From contig CM059430.1 of assembly GCA_030390025.1 (NCBI GenBank), positions 99,758,001 through 99,822,000 on the forward strand: a stretch of DNA of 64,000 bases, read 5' to 3'. Shown one piece after another: positions 1,901 through 63,209 of this stretch. The position numbers and the translations under genes were made by a program. Position 1 is the stretch's first letter. Each line of letters starts with the position of its first letter. The DNA is from Squalus acanthias (lineage: Eukaryota). Under the pieces are notes generated by a model. That model saw only the letters and a list, made by a program, of their open reading frames with translations, did not search any database and had not been told where the DNA came from.

Positions 1901-2251
1901 CTTCGATCGGGAAGGAAAAAAAGAGCGCAGACTGGGATTTGAATCCAAATTAAACCTCCTGCCGCAACATACAACCTCTTTGTAGAGCTGCAGATTTCGA
2001 CACGGTTGGGTGCTGAAGTAAGTGCTGCACAAATAAGAACAGGGGTTTCGGTGCACACCAGTTTCTGCAGCTTGCAGCGTCAAACCTTCCGATCCGGGTT
2101 CATTTTCGTAAAGACTTTTAGTTGCAGATATTTGCAAGGTTGAACCGAAAAGTGCGTGTGTGTGTTTTTTGGGTTTTTTTTTTACTTTGCAATGGGACAG
2201 TGATGATTTGAGGATTGTTTTCATCATGCCAGCGTCCAGGAGCTGTTTGCA

Positions 2252-4741
2252 ATGAATCCAGAAATCAACAGGTACCGATCGGGGATGGATTTGCTATTGC
2301 TGCTTGCCCTGCTCTTCTGGGCTCGGGCTGCCGCCGTGATTAATTTGAAATACTCCATCGTGGAAGAGGAGAGAGCCGGGACGGTGATCGGGAACATCGC
2401 GAAAGACGCCGGCTTCTCAACTTGGGATCAGACGGTGCCTCTGTTCCGCGTTTTATCCAACTCGGCGCCGCATCTGGTGGACATCAACCCATCGACCGGT
2501 TTACTGGTGACCAAGCAGAAGATCGACCGAGACCTGCTGTGCCGGCAGAGCCCCAAATGCCTGATCTCGCTGGAGGAGATGGTCAACTCCATGGAAATCT
2601 GCGTGGTCAAAGTGGAGATCCTCGACCTCAACGACAACTCGCCCAGCTTCCCCACCGAGCAGATCGACCTGGAGATCTCGGAGACCGCCAGTCCGGGCAC
2701 CAGGATCCCCCTGGAGAGCGCTTACGACCCGGACGCCGGAGACTTCGGGGTGCAGACCTACGAGATCACGCCCAACGATTTGTTCGGGCTGGAGATCAAG
2801 AGCCGGGGAGACGGCTCCCGCTTCGCCGAGCTGGTGGTGGAGAAGCCCCTGGACAGGGAGCTCCAGTCCCACTACAGTTACATGATCACCGCGCTGGACG
2901 GGGGCCAGCCCCCCAACTTCGGAACGGCTCAACTCAACATCAAAGTCATCGACTCCAACGACAACTACCCGGTCTTCGACCAGAGCGCCTACACGGTCAA
3001 CGTGTTGGAGAACGCGCCGGCCAGCTCGCTGGTCATCGACCTGAACGCCTCGGACCCGGACGAAGGGACCAACGGCCAGATCGTCTATTCCTTCAACAGC
3101 TACGTGTCGGATAAGCCCAGGGAACTTTTCAAGCTGGACCCCCGCACGGGAGCCATCACAGTGAAGGGCAACATCGACTACGAGGAGGGAAGTATCTACG
3201 AGCTTGACGTGCAGGCGAAAGACCTGGGACCCAACTCCATCCCGGCTCACTGCAAGGTGACGGTGAACGTGCTGGATGTGAACGATAATGTCCCGGTCAT
3301 CACTCTGTTCTCCGTCAGCAGCGAGACGGTGGAGGTGAGCGAAGCCGCCCCTCCCGGCTACGTGATCGGTCTGGTGCGGGTCTCCGACCGGGACTCCGGG
3401 TCTAACGGGAGGGTCCAGTGCAAGCTGCTCGGCGACGTCCCATTCAAACTGCAGGAGTACGAGAGCTTCTACACCATCCTGGTGGACGGCAAGCTGGACC
3501 GAGAGCAGAGAGACCTCTACAACCTCACCATCCTTGCCAAAGACGGTGGCTCCCCCTCGCTCCAGTCCACCAAATCCTTTACCGTCAGGATCACGGACGA
3601 AAACGACAACCCCCCTCACTTCTCCAAACCTTTCTACCAAGTAATCGTTCAGGAGAACAACACCCCGGGGTCGCACCTCCTCTCGGTGTCCGCCAGAGAT
3701 GTGGATCTGGGGTTAAACGGCAGCGTCTCCTACCAGATTATACCATCCCAGGTCAAGGACATGCCCGTGTTCACCTATGTCTCCATTAACCCCACTTCGG
3801 GGGATGTGTACGCACTGAGGTCCTTCAATCACGAGCAGACCAGGTCCTTCGAGTTTAAGGTCATGGCCAAAGATGGGGGAAACCCCGCCCTGGAGAGCAA
3901 CGCCACCGTAAGGGTGATTGTGTTAGATGTGAACGACAATGTGCCGGTTATAACTGCTCCGCCTTTGGTTAATGGGACCACCGATGTCTACATACCCAGA
4001 AACGTCGGCTCTGGCTACTTGGTGACGGTGGTCAAAGCCGATGACTATGACGAAGGTGACAACGGCCGCTTGACCTACGAGATCGCCGATGGCGACCGAG
4101 GCTTCTTCGAGATGGACCAAACGAATGGAGAGATCAGGACCACCAGAAGCTTCGGGGACGGCGCAGAGACCAACTATGAACTGATCGTGGTGGCTCAGGA
4201 TCACGGGAAGCCCGCCCTTTCTTCCACTGCTTTGATCGTGGTGTACCTCTCTCCTGCTCTCGATGCTCAGGAATCGACAGGGTCCTTGAATTTATCCTTA
4301 ATTTTTATAATCGCCCTGGGATCCATCGCTGCTATCCTCTTTGTAACCATGATCTTTGTAGCAGTCAAGTGCAAGCGAGATAACAAGGAGATCAGGACGT
4401 ACAACTGCAGGGTTGCAGAGTATTCATACGGGCAACAGAAGAAACCCAAGAAAAAGAATAAGATCAGCAAGAATGACATCAGGCTGGTGCCCAGAGACAT
4501 GGAGGAGACTGACAAAATGAACGTGGTCAGCTGCTCTTCTCTCACCTCCTCCCTGAACTATTTCGACTACCACCAGCAGACCTTGCCCTTAGGATGTCGT
4601 AGGTCGGAGGCCACCTTTTTAAACGTGGAGAATCAGAACTCGAGGAACACGACTGGAAACCACGTCTACCACACCTTCACCAGCACCCAGAGCTCCCAAC
4701 AGCAGCCCGATCTCATCATCAACGGGATGCCGCTTCCAGAG
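2252..4741 (+). CDS. pcdh19: Protocadherin-19 (delta-2 protocadherin), first coding exon: signal peptide, EC1-EC6, TM, proximal cytoplasmic domain; partial CDS
   Basis: Translation closely matches vertebrate PCDH19 as I recall it (INLKYS.., [124 protein letters not shown]), with DxNDN/DRE calcium motifs. Similarity stops at PLPE, where GAG|GTGAGT forms a phase-0 donor (4741/4742). The second ATG at 2285 (GGGATGG, strong Kozak, directly before the signal peptide) may be the real start. Confidence 0.96.
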
Positions 4742-7700
4742 GTGAGTGCGCCGACCAATCTTGCAGTCAACCCTACAATTGCTGGAGGCTTGTTACGTGA
4801 CAGGTGGACCAGCCTTCCTTTACCGATGGAGCGGCCTGGTCAGTTTCACCACATCGATTGCCGCGTGATATTGACAAGCAGGCTAGGGCTGGGGAGAAAT
4901 GTAGTTTCAAAAAAGATTGTTAGTTGAGCCTCTCTTCAAAACAATTGGACTCATTTGCAAAATTATTCATCGAGAGGTCAACGAGCAGTTGACTGCTGGC
5001 AAATCTGATTCAGCAAACTTTCAAACAGGTGTTGGACTAGTGTATATTTCAGGGTTTTACATTCTATTTGGTGTAATTTCACTGCAGTTCTAACTCAGAA
5101 AGCATTGCAGGCAAAGCGGATCAGCTGTATTGTAACATTGTGCAACATGTCCATTCATTTTTTTCTGGGCATGAAAATGGGTTTACATGCTACATTTAAT
5201 ATGACTCAAGGAGTCAATGAAACAGTGGAGCTGAGGTAAACGGTTGACTTTACAAAACTTTAAATAGCATGACGCTCCATATGTAAGGACCAGTTACTCT
5301 GCCTCTAGCCATAATCTGGGAGTGGGTAAGTGGGGTTGGATGGGGATGAGGAACCATGCACGGGACAGAAACATCTTTGTCCAAAGTGTCCTCCTTGGGA
5401 CACTTTGTTCATGAAGTATTTCAATCCACCGGTTTGCACTTAAGCATTCACTTAGTGGTATTGTACAGTATTTCTTGTTGTCATCGCATATTGAGTTGTG
5501 GTTGGATGTGAAATTGGAGGTGAAGGAATTAGATAATAAATCCTTTAAAATGAAACTTAAATAATGTAGGGAAGAGGCTAAAATGGGTTTGAAGGGTTAG
5601 ATGTGACTAGAAAGTCAATTCATGAAATGAGAAGTACAGATAAACATCAGGAGCTGAAAACATTGGAAAAAGACAGATGTAGGAATGTGAAAGGAGTTTG
5701 GATGAGGGGAAAACATTTTTAATACAGCATCAGAAAGTTATTGGACAGATTGATGTCTTTTATCTCCATTCTCAAAGAAAAGAAAACAGAAAGCAAGAGT
5801 GAGCTTTTTGAAAAGTTGCTCTGACCTTTAAAAAAGTTAAGTTGAAAAAAACCCGAGGACAATCTGGAAACATGCAAGCAGAAATGAAAGATAACCAAAC
5901 AAGTAAAAATAGAGACATAAAACAAACACAACATCAAACAAAAGTGAAGAGAAAGATTACTAACAAGGCATTATAAGTATATTGGCAAAATAAATCAGGC
6001 ATTTTATTAAAAAAAGCAATGTTCCTTTCCTACATATGCAACAGTTCTTATTGACACTGAGTCATTTAACTTACTGAAAGTTATAGTGAACTAATATTTT
6101 TCCTGGACTGATCGTCTTATACAATAGTTTTCAATTTCTGTTGAAAAAATGGACAATTGCTTACTGCAATAAACATGGTGGCAAAGGCATCTCAAAAAAG
6201 GTGCGTTTGCCATTGTCCCTCCAAGGGACAGACTGTGCATACTTACCACCTAAATACTCCCACTGCATTCCCAGTGCTACATAAGTTACTGAAAGTGCAA
6301 TTGCAACTGGCAAAACTAGGGTGTTTCCACGGCTGGATTGCCCAAGGAAGTTTTTTGCCCTAGAGGGAGAATGTAGGTGGTGTTTAGAAGGTAGTGGTTA
6401 GTTTTCCCCTCGCAAACCTTACCCCAAATTGGACCTTAATTCTAGCTCTGTCCAATTGTTCTCTTTTACCCTGAACACACAGACAGCTCAAGACAGCAGT
6501 GTGTGTCAGATAAATAACTGATTGATAACTCAAATTATTCAGTGGGCAGAAAAGAAAGATTAGCTGAATGTAATGAATATGATCCGTGCAAAAGCAAGAT
6601 TTAACTCTTCTGAGTATCAGCTGCCTAACGTAAAGAAAAAATCAGAATCTGAAAAAAAATTCTAATGTTGAATATTCAAAAAGAGAATTAAATAAATTCC
6701 TAGATCCATAAAATATACTTAATTGATGTGTTCTGTAATGAAATGGATAAGGGGGGGGGAAACTACAGCCATTCTCAAAAGGTTATACCACACAACCAGG
6801 ACTTTAGATTCAACAAGAGGAGTGCTACAATCTGAGTTTCTGACAGTGAGCTAATTCTCTTAGGATAGTATCACTGGATATCAATAGTCATGATTGGGTT
6901 GAATTCTCCCACAGACACCATCGAGCATTCTCCCTCCACCCACCCCCACTAAAAACATTTGAATTACCATCAGAGATGCAGTACTTGCACTTGACATCAA
7001 CAAAATACCAGTGTGTGTAAGACTGTAGCAGCAGAGTCAACAGGATTCAGCCTTGTTTGGCTCAAGCAGCTGCTTTGCTGTGAGCTTCTTAGCCCATTTT
7101 CTCTTGATCTGCCACGATCACAATGATCACAAAGGCTAAAAAGAAGGCAGCATTGATTTTACATTGTTGTGCGACCCCTATTGCCTGGGCCACATACTTT
7201 CCACAAGCTCACTCGTTAACTACTTGATGAGGGAAGATAATAACATTTAGTTGACTGTTACTTTCTTAAGAAAAAAATCATGAATTGCACATGAATTAAA
7301 AATGTGCTTTGAATGTTTTATTTGTCATCCGATGCAGTGCATCACACTTGTTTAGTTCCTCTAAATTTGAAAATTATTGATTTCTCCCCCCTCCCCCCTT
7401 CCCCCGCAGAAAAGTGTCACAATTTTATCACCCTCATTACCTATGACTAGTGACCTTTCCTTGCAGACAATAGTTACTTGCTGTAGAACAGCACGTTATG
7501 TTGCATGGTGTCATAATAACATAATTAAAGCATGCTTGCTGGATATTTTTTCAAAAATAAAATGGCAGTATAATGGAGAACTATCACATCACAGGTTGGT
7601 GCGAAATAGCTTTGATGCGTTACCTCTGCTGAGCTCTTTAAACTTAGCCACCCTGCTGGTGTAGGCACTGAGCAAAGATCAAGAAACTCCTGGCTGGAAA

Positions 7701-55938: not shown

Positions 55939-57984
55939 TTCTGCCTGACCCAAAAGAAATTTAATGATACGCTGCCCTCTCCATATCTGTAGCACATGGA
56001 CCTAGCTCTATGCTCTAGGGGATTGAACAACCCTGGTGTAATGAACAATGAAAAAGACATTTTGCGCGTTATGAGTGCTGTTTTGGTTATGTATAGAGGT
56101 TCTTTTTTGTCTTGCGGTGTAGAGTAGGAGTAGTATATAGATAGTATCATCATGGGATTCACAATGCCATCACATCCAACTTGGTTGGTGACGACGATAA
56201 AGTGACAAAGTTGTGCTGGTTAATGGGACTTGGCCTTGGTGGAGTGGTTTGGTTGGTTGTGTTTTAAAGTTATTTTTTGGGTCAGTTGTGTAGCACCAGT
56301 GAGATTTTAAGTGTGCTGCTGATGCTCCAGAATGTTTAGGGGGCTAGGGAGTTGCCATGGTTACAGCTGTGCGCTCACTAATGGTAAGAGTGAGCGCACA
56401 GCTGTTTGATTTATTTTTTAAGCAGAGTGACACATGGGAAAGTAGTTCTGGTCAGACGATTATCTCACATACACGGACAAATTCTGTAATCTATGCACAT
56501 GAGGTAAGAAATGTGTCCTGGGCCTCATACGTTATACAGAATGGATTATTTTAATAGGTACCATGGGGAAAAAATATTGTAACAGCTTTACAAGAACGGA
56601 ATGAAAATCTCCCAGTGTTAAATCTTATACTTAACTAAGGTTTGTGTAGGTATTGTGAGCATTTACAAGTATGTAAAGTTTATATCCAGTTGTGTGCGTA
56701 CGCACAGACATGCATAGTGGGTCACTTATCTATGATTCAGCCAACTGCATGGACTGTAGAACAGTTAATGCTTGCAGTAAAGTCATAGGCACCTTCTTTA
56801 CACTTGTGTTGACAATTTCATTACAAATAACCAACCTTTCTCCATCTCCTGCTTTTGAGGCCTGTGTGTGAATTAAGCCCAACTTGACAGAAAGAACCCC
56901 CCCCCCCCCTCTCTCCAGTTGGAAGTCTCCTGAATAAGAGACATTTGCCAGTTTTAACCCAGTGTCTAAATTGGTGCAAGCCCCCTTTGCAAAATTGTCC
57001 ATAATTCCATACAACTTGCAAATAAATCAATAGTATGATTAACTATGCAAGAGGCACAACATGGTGTGGGGATTGGAAATGCCACACTAGTGCAATGGAG
57101 TTGCTCCACTGAGGTAGGGTTTAAGGAAGGGGAGGGGAGATAGGATTTCCTCCACGCTCCAGAAATAGCAGAATCGTAAATGTATTTATAGCGAACAGGT
57201 TTACAGTTTTACTATATCTAGCACAAAGAGGAAATTGTCCCTTTTTGTTGGGGCAGTGCATAGGGAGCTTTACTCTGCTTATAATTTCTACTATAGCTTA
57301 GTTGGGAGTACATGATGACCACATTAGATGCTCAATGTTCCATTTGGAGGAACTGCCATCCTCACATTAATGAGCACAAAATATTACACCCAAAATTAAT
57401 TTTATTCACACAAAAAAGATCTTTGAACTTATTAGTTCATTCTGAGTAATGTGAATTAAGGTTTTTTTGGAATCCATTCCTGCTTCTAATTCCACTTTCA
57501 GAGTTCCATTATTTAAGTAAAGTACTGCACAAAGGAGAAGGTGTGTGTGGTTCAAAAGCTGATGACATCTCAGTACTCAACGGGTTGATGTTCAAGTGTG
57601 CATTTTTACATTGGATAATGTGAACACTTGATGAAAGTGATATATTGGGTGCGCTAGAGAGACAGAGAAATCAATGTTAGTGCAGTGGTGTATATATGAA
57701 AAGAAGATAGTGTGTTGATACGTCAGAGGTTTTTGTGGATTTGTGAATGTGCCCTCCTGAGGGTGGCCACTTGGTCTCAAAGTAAAGGTCGGGTTGGAGT
57801 GGAACTTATTTTTCTCCATTTGTTCATATCAATAGCAACGAGCATTCACAGCCAAGATATGGTGTAACTTTGGGGGCTCTCCATTCCATGGCAACGCACC
57901 TTCATCTGAACTTCGGTATTATGAGCTGCCCTGTACCTGCCAACTCTAACATTTGAGAATGAGCAGCACAATTTGGAAGATCGT

Positions 57985-58205
57985 GCCATGCTCCCATCAT
58001 TTTGTTCAATTTCTTACTGCCTCCTCTCCTGAAGGCACTGCCTCATGTTTGGGTTCCACGAACACCAGCAATCCTCCAGTATCTTACGCAAGTGGTCATC
58101 TTTGTGTATGGACCTTGACAGTGAGTGTCAGTGAGCTGCTTGACTGTGGGAAGGTGCATCACAATGAAGCCCAATCACATCCTCAGCTGTACTCCCATGC
58201 TTTTA
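57985..58205 (-). mobile_element. Third SINE family (AmnSINE2-like, tentative), 3' part
   Basis: Reverse complement resembles 23855-24062 (TGTGATGC..GACACTCACTGTCAAGG..CCTTCAGGAGAGGAGG..GAAATTG). Confidence 0.5.
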
Positions 58206-58623
58206 AAGGGACCACCAATCATTTTAATCAAATTATGTGGTTGATTTTCACTTTCTAGACCCATATTTCACTTTCCATTATGATAGTCCCAGAGCAATAA
58301 CATTCATTTTAGAATCTGGTAAGAATTATGCGGCAAACATTATTTTTCCCCCCTCATAGTATGTCTGGTAACTTAATGCGTAAACGAGCGTACAGGGGAT
58401 GGGAAAGACTCCTGTTAGACTTAGCTCTGTAATGTCATCACTAATAAATCACAGGCTAATTGCTCACAAAATGGTCACATCTGATATGGAGCTGGTTTGT
58501 GTTTGTAGGGTTGGAATAGATCCTTTTTTAAAAACATGTCCTTAAAGTGTAGTTCAAAAGGTTTCTTTTTGGTATATTAATGTGCAACGTGAAGAAAAAC
58601 CACACTGCTTTACACAAACACCA

Positions 58624-59517
58624 GCTCCCTTGGGCATCACATATACTAAAATTGGAACGATACAACAACAACTTGTATTTATATAGCGCCTTTAACATAG
58701 TAAAACGTCTCAAGGCGCTGCACAGGAGTATTTTAAGACAAAAAATTTGACACCGATGCACATAAGGAGAAATTAGGGCAGGTGACCAAAAGCTTGGTCA
58801 GAGGTAGGTTTTAAGGAGCGTCTTAAAGGAGGAAAGAGAGGTAGTGAGATGGACAGGTTTAGGCAGGGAATTCCAGAGTTTAGGACCTAGGCAACAGAAG
58901 GCATGGCCAACAATGATTGAGCGATTATAATCAGGGATGCTCAAGAGGGCAGAATTAGAGGAGTGCAGATAACTCGGGGGGTTGTGGAGCTGAAGGAGAT
59001 TACAGAGATAGGAAGGGGCGAGGCCATGGAGGGATTTGAAAACAAGGATGAGAATTTTGAAATCGAGGCGCTGCTTAACCGAGAGCCAATGTAGGTCAGC
59101 GAGCACAGGGGTGATGGATAAATGGGACTTGGTGTGAGTTAGGACACGGGCAGCCGAGTTTTGGATGACCTCAAGTTTACGTAGGGTGGAATGTGGGAGG
59201 CCAACCAGGAGTGCGTTGGAATAGTCAAGTCTAGAGGTAACAAAGGCATGGATGAGGGTTTCAGCAGCGGATGAGCTGAGGCAAGGGCGGAGACGGGCGA
59301 TGTTACGGAGGTGGAAGTAGGCGGTCTTCGTTATGCTGCAGATATGTGGTCAGAAGCTCATTTTAGGGTCAAATATGACACCAAGGTTGCTAACAGTGTG
59401 GTTCAGCCTCAGACAGATGTTTGGGAGAGGGATGGAGTCAGTGGCTAGGGAATGGAGTTTGTGGCAGGGACCAAAAACAATGGCTTCAGTCTTCCCAATA
59501 TAGAGAAGATTAGCATG
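58624..59517 (+). pseudogene. RNU6: U6 snRNA fragment (U6 nt ~3-58) split into 58624-58664 and 59503-59517 by an L2 insertion
   Basis: GCTCCCTTGGGCATCAC-ATATACTAAAATTGGAACGATACA matches U6 nt 3-43 (3 mismatches; nt 20-43 exact). GAGAAGATTAGCATG matches U6 nt 44-58 exactly and lies immediately after the LINE. The 3' half of U6 is absent. Confidence 0.9.
58665..59501 (-). mobile_element. 5'-truncated L2-clade LINE (~840 bp), well preserved
   Basis: Minus-strand ORF LADLHWLSVKQRLDFKILILVFKSLHGLAPSYL..AFCCLGPKLWNSLP..SSFKTLLKTYL (L2 ORF2 C-terminus); tail GGCGCTATATAAATACAAG(TTG)n. Confidence 0.92.
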
Positions 59518-59814
59518 TTGTACTCAGCATGGCAATTGTATTCAATTTCCCCTTTAGCTAGAGATGAAAGGCTAAAAATTAATGTCAGCAGAATCAGTAG
59601 ATGAATACTTATTTGTATGACATTTTGCTGCCCAGTATTTTAATGAAGGCATCAACCGTTTATTTCAAAATGTTTCCACTGAAACAATGGAGAGAGGAAT
59701 ATTATACAAGCAGTGTTCATTCATTAATGTAGCCAGCAGCCATTTCTAGTCTGTAGAGAGAATTTCCTCCATTTAGATTGGCAGACTTTAGTTAGGGTAG
59801 CAGAGGATGACAGC

Positions 59815-59824
59815 GCGTGCCAGC

Positions 59825-59867
<43 letters not shown>

Positions 59868-60870
59868 GTGAGTTCAAGGCCCACTCCACAGACTTTGGGT
59901 GGAAAAGTTGGGTCACGCCCCCTTTGGGGTGCTAATTTTGTCGGGGTGCTACTTTTAGCACCCCAAAAAAGTTATCACCCCCACACCGGAAATTGAATGG
60001 TAGCGCCCCAAGCATGAGGCGGGGCGCTACTGGAAGCGCTCCCCCTCCCTCTTGGGGCGCTCCCATTGAATATCGTGGCGGTACGTGCAACGTCGGCACG
60101 TAGTGCCGCGGTATTACAGGCCTCCCTCCCCTGATTAAAGGGGAGGGGCCTAGCGCAGCGCGCACCGGGGCCCTGCTGGACCACCGATCGCAGCCGGCGC
60201 CCCGCAGGAGGAGGCGAAAGGGGGCAGGTGCTGGCAGGCGGCCCTGAAAAAATGGCCACCCGGCACTTGCCCTTTAATTTGCGCCGCCGCGGCCACAAAC
60301 ACAACACCCTTACCCTGTCAGATATAGCGTCTGGCGGTAGGTCAGGGGGCGTGAGCGAAGTTTGTGAGTGGGGCGCTGCACGCAGCGATGACGTCATCGG
60401 CGGAGGCGCAACGCCGCAGGCCGCTACCAGCTACCGTCACCGCTAACCTCCCGCTGAATTTCATGGGCGCCGTTAGCAGCGCCGTGCCTGGGCTCTAGGT
60501 GCTTTGCGTCCCGTTAGTACCCCCTCGCTACGGGAGGCGCAAAGCAGCCCAATTTTTCCTCCTGAAGCACAGAATCTAGGCTGACACTCCAGTACAGTAC
60601 TGAGGGAGTGCTGCACTGTCGGAAGTACCATCCTTCGGATGAGAGTCTACTCTCTGAAGTGGACTTAAAAGATCCCACAGCATTATTCAAAGATGAGGTG
60701 GGGAGTTGTTCGCAGGCCAATATTTATCCCTCAACCAACATATCTGGTCATTATCATTATGCTGTTTCCGGGAGCTTGCTGTGCACAAATTGGCTGCCAT
60801 GTTCCCTACATTGCAACAGGGATTACACTTCAAAAGTACTTCAGTCGATGTAAAGTGCTGTATAAATGGA
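59815..60870 (+). mobile_element. Full-length Deu-domain SINE split by a GC-rich MITE
   Basis: Head 59815-59896 (TGGCTCAGTGGGTAGC..GTTCAAGGCCCACTCCACAGACT); the body resumes at about 60563 (AGCACAGAATCTAGGCTGACACTCCAG..). Confidence 0.88.
59897..60562. mobile_element. GC/CpG-rich MITE (second Harbinger-like family)
   Basis: Imperfect TIRs GGTGGAAAAGTTGGG / CCCAATTTTTCCTCC; cleanly interrupts a SINE; its right end is homologous (inverted) to 63876-64000. TSD not cleanly resolved. Confidence 0.75.
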
Positions 60871-63209
60871 GGTCTGTCTTACAGGTGTGTTTTTAATGAT
60901 CTGCTTTTTGAAGAGCTTTTCTGGCACAGATTCTGAGCATTACTAAAAGTGCTGAGGGGATATGAGGGGTTGAGGAAAAGCAGAAATAATAGCCAAGGAG
61001 ATCAAGAAGCAAAGGAATGTTAAGCAGGTCGAGAGCAGGAATCAAGAAGCACACGAGAAGTCATTATAAATAAATAGTAAATAAAATTGCCTAGGCAAAC
61101 CTTCTTGTTCAGATAATTACGTTGCTATTATTGGATTGGATTTCGGAGTACTTACAGCAAATCTAATGTTAATTTCAAGTAACACAGACGTTCAGACCAG
61201 GACCGCTGAACTAGCGCTAAATCATAGCCGGTTCAGTGCAGTCATGTTCCGTGGAAATCAATCCATCTCCAACTGGATTCAGACTCCCAAAACTCATTTC
61301 ACTTAACACCTTTATCAGCCATCATAGAAAAGCAGGCCTCATCCAGGCTGGAATCAAACCTGAGTCTCAGAGGTAGAAACACGAGTGCTTCAGAATAGCG
61401 CAGTAATGCACTGTTCCCACCCCATTGCCAATGCGTGCAGCACAGCATACTCAAATATCAATAGGCAGGGGTTTGAATAAGTGCTTCTCAAGTCCCCCAA
61501 GACGGACGAATTATGGGAAATGAGGGCCAAGCTAAAACATAGGTCCTTTCTCTAGAACGAGCCTCAGCATTTCATTTAAAAGCCTGCCTACTGCAAGCAT
61601 TTTTGGTAGTTTTTGTGCAGCAGTTAAATTAATCGTTTTTTTTAAATCCCTTTGATGGATGAGGACTAAGTCAAAATGTTAGATTCTCAATGCAGGAGCC
61701 ACTCAGCATTTTATTTGAAGTACTGTCAGTATGATTTCTTATTTTAAAAAATACATATGATCTTATGGAACAAATTTGAAGGCCTTACGGGATAGACCCT
61801 GCTTGTGATACTAGAGGATTTTTATTACGGTCTCAGAATTAATAGGCTCCTTAGTAAAGCACATGCAAATAACACTGGGGTGAATAAGGATTACAAAAAT
61901 AAAACTTTTTATTTAAAAAGAAAAATAGAACTGTGGTGCATCAGTTTAGAGCCTCCTTTAAAAAGCAGATATAAAGAATTATGATTAATCTTGTTTTTGT
62001 TCAAAGTGAACACTGATATCATCAGGAGACCTGGGACCAGGGAGGAATCAGATATTGAATCTAACAGTGTGAGGGAAGTGAATCAACAAACGGTTGAGGT
62101 GATGAGATTGTAGCATGTCAGGCTAATGACTGCCCTTCTGTAAAATCAGCTTCCTCACACTGTCAGGTTCAGTAATTCTCCTGCCCCTGTTCACCTGGTG
62201 TGGTGATCAAGGCCAGTAAATGTGCGGTTTTCATGGAACGAAGGAAGCAATCATGGAATTCTATCCCCAAAACACATCTTAAAAATCCCAGAATCCCATC
62301 TAATAAAACTCATTTAGTTACTGTAAATCAATAGCCTTGATTGTTATTCATTTTTGTCTCCGTAATTCTTTGATTTTTTTGTGTAAAATTACATGCGATA
62401 CAATCTTTAGATCACAGAAAGAACACAGAGTCCTAATTCTTCATTCAATTTACAGTTAACAATGTGTTCAATAAGACTAAACAAAAGCTGTTCGCTGTAT
62501 TGTACAATATTGGTTTGATATGAACAATTTCTTGTATATTTTTGCAGGGGTGGTCTTGCAGAAAATGAATGTCCTTTGAACTTTTGACAGGGTTTCTGTT
62601 TCCTAAAGGTTAATCAGGTAGCATCAGCAACATTTTAGATCATTTGCAAATGCAGACGCTACCAGCTCGAATCCTGGGAAATACAAGGCCTGGCAGACAT
62701 TTTGTTACGAACGATCTCAACCATGATATGGTGCCCGGGGTATTTTAAATACTGTTCAATGGTCACCAGGTCGGAGGATGTCTGTGACCTGGCACAGCAG
62801 GAAATGGCAGATTGATTAATGTAAAACATGAAAAAAAATGGTGTTTTGAGAGCTGAATTGCTTGAACATCTTGCTCTGGAGACTGCAGCAATTACAGCGG
62901 TCAATAGACTTCGTATTGTGAGCATAAATCACCTTGGTGGAGCCATTTCTTATTTTAGATACGTTATTATTATATTGCGTAGGGTATGGCACAGCCTGTG
63001 CTGAGTGTAGTGCCATGGAGCAGGGTGACACAGCTTTGGTTTCCCATTCCACTCAGCTCCTGATCTGAGCTGCTCTGAATGGGGAGGCCTGGGGGGGGGG
63101 TGGGTGCAGTTCCTGAGGGGTGGGGGAAAGAGGGGTGAAAATCAGCCAGGGATGTTTGACCTTGGTGATGCTTTGCCCCTTCCTAATGGGCAGTCATATT
63201 GAGCATTGG

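Follow-up and report, generated by a model that had tools for sequence, protein, structure and literature searches.

Mobile elements resident in small nuclear RNA (snRNA) sequences, chimeric and tailless retrocopies of U6, and insertions of L2-clade LINEs are the described systems closest to the locus analysed here. Among elements of the first kind, Keno inserts in U2. As far as the available portions of the sources go, Utopia likewise inserts in U2 (PMC4640811), and Dada-U6 is a DNA transposon that enters multicopy genes at the constant site CTTGCGCAG and duplicates 6-7 bp there (PMC8869645). Partially available reports describe chimeras of U6 and LINEs as template-switch U6-L1 products, as U6-L2 fusions in platypus and anole, and as twin-priming products with inverted snRNA and L1 (PMC4476161; PMC11838501). 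Tailless snRNA pseudogenes are characterized, in the excerpts at hand, by clustered truncation, 3' complementarity to the target and target duplications, and are reported from mammals and the anole lizard and not from platypus, chicken or Xenopus (PMC4476161; PMC5322556); therian mammals and anole are the only vertebrate lineages named for the class in the available text (PMC5322556). For zebrafish ZfL2-2, the accessible part of the description gives 3' microhomology in about 80% of genomic copies and 5' microhomology in about 50% (PMC2666801).

The locus lies in the window (the whole 64,000-nucleotide stretch of DNA analysed, G000:C6:99758001-99822000), and searches covered the 3.71-Gb genome. 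Comparison with the top-scoring U6 gene of the same genome (L003) revealed U6 sequence on both flanks of an antisense LINE, with no U6 base lost, as the first-pass annotation had claimed. The left part (nt 3-42, 58624-58663, forward strand) matches the reference at 38/41 positions over nt 3-43, with A43 also readable at 58664, and its three substitutions (nt 7, 11 and 16) all fall within the 5' stem-loop. The right part (nt 43-58, 59502-59517, forward strand) matches at 16/16 positions and ends inside the nt 52-59 zone in which dispersed copies are truncated; its assignment to U6 stood, with a start at nt 43 (59502), one base before the nt 44 originally given. The whole piece (nt 3-58) is thus identical to the genomic U6 at 53 of 56 positions, and flanking sequence begins directly after it. 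The U6 call by way of RF00026 was also borne out, this being the best Rfam match on 58600-58664 (16.6 bits, E 0.02, 3' end cut), at a score under the 44-bit cut-off of the family; a scan of the 6 kb at 56000-62000 returned seven chance-level matches, U6 being absent. No U6 promoter was seen upstream of 58624, where the flank differs from those of the clustered U6 genes. The U6-derived piece is truncated at its 3' end and carries no poly(A), and a possible target site duplication of the retrocopy, AGC, was noted by eye at 58623-58625 (left copy, forward strand) and 59512-59514 (right copy), its 3 nt lying within chance when compared with the null distribution. The window also contains, 54 kb upstream of the locus, a 906-codon single-exon ORF with cadherin repeats (2207-4927, forward strand) that is protocadherin-like; the U6/L2 locus may be intronic or intergenic.

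Family comparison identified the sequence between the U6 parts as a 5'-truncated L2-type LINE of 838 bp (58664-59501, reverse strand), in agreement with the antisense element of about 840 bp proposed at first, comprising the end of ORF2, the 3' UTR and the tail. The tail is (TTG)n on the element strand, with 11 nt in phase (58662-58672, reverse strand), and the insert harbours a 183-codon open stretch (58798-59349) with an in-frame stop immediately 5' of it. Identity to its 29 closest copies is 93-95%, and the insert diverges from their majority by 4.2% (35/833), or by 2.5% (19/759) outside CpG. Pfam gave no match for the 180-aa ORF piece of the window alone, and a PDB search for the LINE clade also returned no match, while RVT_1 was found in a longer family copy, L120 (E 5e-13 and 7e-9). 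The copies compared display the traits of the L2 clade, namely an RT ORF, variable 5' ends and a short tandem-repeat tail, and C-terminal protein motifs provide the basis for a putative assignment of the insert to this clade. Evenly spaced samples totalling 400 kb contained 6-9 young 3' ends, from which some 56,000-83,000 young copies of the family are estimated. One independent copy (L116, G000:C14:9741727-9742561) shares its truncation point with the window copy, to the base, possibly at a hot spot in an AT-rich stretch; a common truncated master for the two was considered and rejected, as they share two non-CpG variants, no more than other copies do.

At the 5' end of the element the family continues CCCAATAT-T and the window reads CCCAATAT-A, which sets the limit of LINE homology at 59501 and assigns the next base, the A at 59502, to U6 A43. 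The break point is traversed by 26 of the 29 family copies, with L116, L129 and L131 ending at or before it, and the sequencing run X6 of a relative also has loose ends at 59501. Seven bases beyond the break the family sequence is GAGAAAATT, which resembles U6 nt 44-52, and the right 16 nt could on this account be altered L2, or a chance match, within a chimera of U6 (nt 3-43) and inverted L2. We consider this exceedingly improbable. The right segment is in exact register at 16/16 positions, includes six bases not supplied by L2 and ends in the truncation zone, and a match of this kind resuming beyond 838 bp of foreign sequence would be far beyond chance. Furthermore, the U6 3' end adjoins the L2 tail, not the L2 5' end as in twin-priming chimeras.

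On the other side of the insert, the first three forward-strand bases of the LINE tail (from 58662) coincide with U6 nt 41-43, constituting a 3' microhomology. The proposed overlap between the (TTG)n tail and the ACA of U6 was hence upheld, the 11-nt tail phase running back through nt 41, and both flanks of the insert offer an A that can be read as nt 43. Because of this overlap the break can be resolved to nt 41-43 only, and its original placement exactly at A43 was too precise. The observed letters are equally compatible with three joins, namely a blunt insertion at the C42/A43 boundary, which requires no mutation, duplication of a single nucleotide, and replacement of nt 41-42 by the tail. 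A43 is the methylated (m6A) base of U6, and a tie between the break and this site is not supported. Among the 35 family copies compared, 26 were measured for duplications, the other nine being omitted with a 5' end out of reach or unclear. Duplication-like words of at most 2 nt were found in 18/26 copies (null, 1430/2000 shuffled pairs) and words of at least 5 nt in 3/26 (null, 57/2000), and AT directly precedes the tail in 9/26, window included. The window junction is typical of its LINE family.

The unique left flank of the locus was present in ten sequencing runs from five studies. Organism A accounts for five of the runs, and shares in the other five range from 0.07 to 0.23. Four of the latter were compared over 59300-60300, of which X6 and X7 (shares 0.17 and 0.07) were without junction coverage. 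Organisms C and D, from one study, each yielded a gap-free 371-nt contig (59474/5-59844/5) with 10-11 differences. These contigs start 27-28 nt inside the L2, under a bridging bar of 31 nt for the tool, but at the position expected for the start of a 31-mer contig that exits a high-copy repeat. Both carry the right U6 piece with one change, a G at nt 53, which fits neutral decay. From these contigs, the split from C and D, at about 3% divergence, very likely came after both the right U6 piece and the 5' junction of the L2 were in place. The uninterrupted 58-nt U6 fragment anticipated in relatives was accordingly not found at the orthologous site, C and D sharing the L2 5' junction in the comparison of the right junction. 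Comparison of the right flank with the genome itself returned weak low-copy repeats, none spanning the junction, so no paralogous empty site was available. The ages of the two components overlap, with 3/56 positions changed in the U6 piece and 2.5-4.2% in the L2. As no empty orthologous site was found, we infer the order of the two events, U6 copy first and L2 second.

The first-pass annotation had left room for a preference of the L2 family for U6, and called for a genome-wide search for further junctions. A single occurrence was found across five pattern searches. The exact left junction has one match in the genome, the window itself, and a CpG-tolerant version has 12 matches, against 24 for the control, with the L2 tail in the window alone. 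U6 nt 19-38 has 76 matches; flanks were fetched for those outside the full-length U6 list, and only the window continues into L2. Similarly, antisense L2 lies directly upstream in the window only among 60 matches to U6 nt 44-58, and in 1/26 matches (the window) to nt 43-56 without the preceding C. All 48 scored full-length candidates are uninterrupted; tandem arrays on C13 and C3695 account for 41 of these. No L2, CR1 or Tx1 sequence was present in the 330 nt upstream of lone 15-mers (L082, L087-L090, L092 and L093) or of U6 pieces lacking the 5' part (L084, L091, L195 and L196), and additional U6-like words of 12-14 nt in L196 and L198 were dismissed as chance.

A further pattern, U6 nt 38-54, produced 429 matches against 19 for the control. 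A U6-bearing repeat family was considered as the source of this excess and rejected: among the first 100 matches listed of the 429, 36 were fetched, of which 16 are a GA-rich repeat unrelated to U6 and the other 20 are U6 copies or chance. The GA-rich repeat (L199-L206, L208-L212 and L223-L225), located mostly on unplaced contigs, carries a 17-nt exact match to nt 38-54 and shows no U6 similarity beyond it. The array on C13 (59.92-60.42 Mb) comprises at least 30 near-identical U6 genes in tandem, with 11 more on C3695. Upstream flanks in these arrays are of at least two types, and some variants carry insertions near nt 55.

These data bear directly on the idea that the L2 family prefers U6 at the ACAGAGA box, in the manner of Dada-U6 or the U2-targeting elements. 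The one insertion at nt 41-43 occupies a site that suits the loose AT-then-tail context of the family, and 8/9 bases of U6 nt 44-52 are matched by family sequence adjoining the break. Against this stand a single copy in U6 out of some 56,000-83,000 young copies, the absence of insertions in the 48 scored full-length copies (41 in arrays) and the absence of a U6 flank in all 29 closest LINE copies, as the earlier observation of family members outside U6 had suggested; moreover, other elements occupy other U6 positions. Neither repeated insertion at a fixed site of a multicopy gene, the hallmark of snRNA targeting (one junction, 0/48), nor a majority of family copies flanked by the target (0/29) was observed. 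A preference for U6 is largely refuted, and we give it very little credence.

The window copy belongs to a broader class. Twenty-one dispersed U6 retrocopies truncated at the 3' end ("tailless") were identified, window included, and every one of them ends within nt 52-59, a zone that would mark where a single-stranded region of U6 terminates. The other members are L034, L036, L062, L065, L067, L070, L071, L073, L075, L078, L079, L084, L091, L194-L198, L207 and L255, and the count is a lower bound, since the search patterns tolerated at most one mismatch. Longer dispersed copies number 22, tallied by eye. A flanking target duplication of at least 5 nt (5-10 nt) was detected in 9/19 tailless copies (window and L255 excluded), against 292/2000 shuffled pairs, and the duplications of the class, 1-10 nt in length, mostly begin with AGC (e.g. 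L036, L065, L067, L070 and L198). Nineteen of the 21 copies are unsplit, meaning that the class exists without any LINE. Tx1-like elements are also present in the genome and are joined to U6 at L085 and L094. Tailless U6 retrocopies, known from therians and anole, hence also form a class of at least 21 in a shark genome, where they may point to a relaxed L1/Tx1-type enzyme; in the literature as far as it was accessible, no report on U6 pseudogenes in sharks was found.

The second split member of this class, L197 (909-2518; G000:C14:41995566+), is a tailless copy of U6 nt 15-55 interrupted at nt 36-38 by a LINE that is presumably CR1-like. U6 nt 15-36 is followed by 1.57 kb of same-sense LINE and then by nt 38-55, and a 6-nt duplication encloses the whole block. 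The LINE encodes RVT_1 (E 4e-14), has a tail overlapping U6 nt 38-40 and holds a short palindromic element. Additionally, a U6 gene of the C13 array (L227, 744-1491) is interrupted between nt 24 and 29 by a MITE-like element of 748 bp bearing inverted ends, and L207 is a tailless U6 piece within what appears by eye to be an L2 copy. Random nesting predicts varied elements, orientations and positions, and the pattern of L197, L227 and L207 fits this prediction.

The number of splits was compared with chance expectation using the density of young repeat segments, which, at pairwise identities of 92-85%, amounts to 0.35-0.72 for each kb of DNA remaining and is a rough proxy that counts segments rather than events. 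For 41 of the 43 dispersed U6 copies, 0.98-2.0 splits are expected across identity thresholds of 92-85%, and two were observed; insertions of this L2 subfamily alone are expected in dispersed U6 DNA at 0.04-0.06. Within the tailless class, 0.32-0.65 splits are expected and two were observed, with a probability of two or more of 0.04-0.14, which falls to 0.01-0.03 when the count is restricted to the middle 20 nt, where splits can be detected. Selection of the window case on account of its split biases these figures; an unbiased estimate asks how likely one or more additional splits would be, and gives 0.27-0.48 for the tailless class and 0.13-0.25 for the middle only.

Both splits fall in the tailless class and within 7 nt of each other, which counts against nesting by chance. 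In an alternative reading, U6-LINE-U6 sandwiches would form in one insertion, the template being left at the single-stranded nt 36-43 and rejoined at the same base. A single LINE enzyme would copy U6 from nt 58, switch template at nt 41-43 during second-strand synthesis onto the tail of its own L2 RNA, copy 838 nt and return to the U6 cDNA. Such an assembly would account for the LINE being antisense with no need for another nick, and L197 would be its same-sense version, produced by a CR1-like enzyme. Splits affect 2/21 tailless copies against 0/22 longer dispersed copies (within the flanks fetched), with breaks in nt 36-43; one 6-nt duplication encloses the U6-LINE-U6 block of L197, and the component ages overlap. 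Opposite-orientation twin-priming chimeras of snRNA and L1, as well as U6/L2 chimeras, are in print, according to the part of the source available (PMC4476161). However, the scheme demands an exact return to the same base, which a later insertion gives for free, and a later insertion also leaves an enclosing duplication such as that of L197. Splits can be detected only near the middle of a 45-nt piece, and their total count matches chance. The accessible text of the literature further presents published chimeras with the snRNA on a single side of the LINE (PMC4476161; PMC11838501) and L2 proteins as strict in requiring their own 3' end (PMC4476161), and no description of a one-step sandwich route for L2 and CR1 enzymes was found in it. 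An RNA-level co-integration of U6 and L2, also contemplated in the first-pass annotation, is unlikely, and we hold the one-insertion origin of these sandwiches to be doubtful, with roughly one chance in eight. If true, it would represent a new form of template switching by LINE enzymes, including enzymes thought to be stringent.

Several other U6 copies of this genome adjoin foreign sequence. Rfam matches show full-length U6 joined directly to a same-sense 5S rRNA copy at L074 (1983-2198) and L077 (1811-2038), and their sequence marks both as apparent U6-5S chimeric retrocopies. The U6 copy is followed by a same-sense CR1-like end (87%) at L069 (2088+), by a same-sense Tx1-like end (75%) at L085 (1563+) and by tRNA-like sequence, identified by eye, at L064 (1938-); these three are ordinary U6 chimeras. 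L076, L081 and L083 are CR1-like by eye, without a match to the references used. In the C13 array, L094 (132-2210) is a U6 gene with its upstream flank that extends to nt 71 and is joined to a 5'-truncated Tx1-like ORF of 651 aa bearing RVT_1 and zf-RVT; the 3' end of this U6 was not found within 10 kb. At L032 (G000:C1:125673460-125673566), a U6 copy is accompanied on the opposite side by an inverted partial duplicate of U6 and its 3' flank.

Taken as a whole, the evidence favours an L2-type LINE nested by chance in a pre-existing tailless U6 retrocopy through two sequential retrotranspositions, a reading to which we assign a probability of about 0.85. The microhomology-primed chance insertion into a small U6 pseudogene envisaged at the outset fits all the tests performed, including the uniqueness of the junction. 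In the first step, a LINE enzyme, probably of the L1/Tx1 clade, would have nicked the chromosome, and the cut strand would have paired with U6 RNA around nt 53-58, allowing U6 to be copied back to nt 3. Later, a member of the abundant L2 family would have cut the sense strand of U6 at nt 40-43, and pairing of the exposed end through ACA with the (UUG)n tail of the L2 RNA would have allowed 838 nt to be copied before the end was joined with a 0-1 nt duplication. Priming by the tail microhomology is, from the junction letters, most likely. No function is predicted for the product, which would be an inert passenger that arose before divergence from C and D. The locus is a real and ordinary nesting of repeats of known kinds, and its biological weight is small, as one repeat inside another dead copy, yet the presence or absence of its two layers could be scored as a marker in related species. 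No account of a LINE splitting a U6 pseudogene or nested in one was found in the accessible literature, whose supplements may hold split copies.

Compared with the known systems, the locus resembles Dada-U6, Utopia and Keno in having a mobile element within snRNA sequence (U6 in the case of Dada), but departs from Dada-U6 in element class, in site and in the length of the duplication, and in being a single insertion in a dead fragment, with none in the U6 gene array. Like the U6/LINE chimeras, it presents U6 next to a LINE, in opposite orientation as in the twin-priming cases, whereas chimeras carry the snRNA on the LINE 5' side and on one side only; here U6 occupies both sides with continuous numbering, and its 5' part adjoins the LINE tail. 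The window copy and its class share with tailless retropseudogenes 3' ends confined to one short segment, the lack of poly(A), a 3' end overlapping the target and target duplications in part of the class. They differ from them in the shark host and in AGC-initial duplications in place of an A-rich L1 site, and the window copy also differs in having been split by a probably later LINE. Lastly, as far as the available portions of the descriptions extend, the insert agrees with L2-clade insertions such as ZfL2-2 in its 5' truncation, short tandem-repeat tail and 3' microhomology, in a target duplication that is very short or absent and in a possible 5' microhomology of 1-3 nt, and is unlike them only in its landing place, a U6 retrocopy (PMC2666801; PMC4760211).
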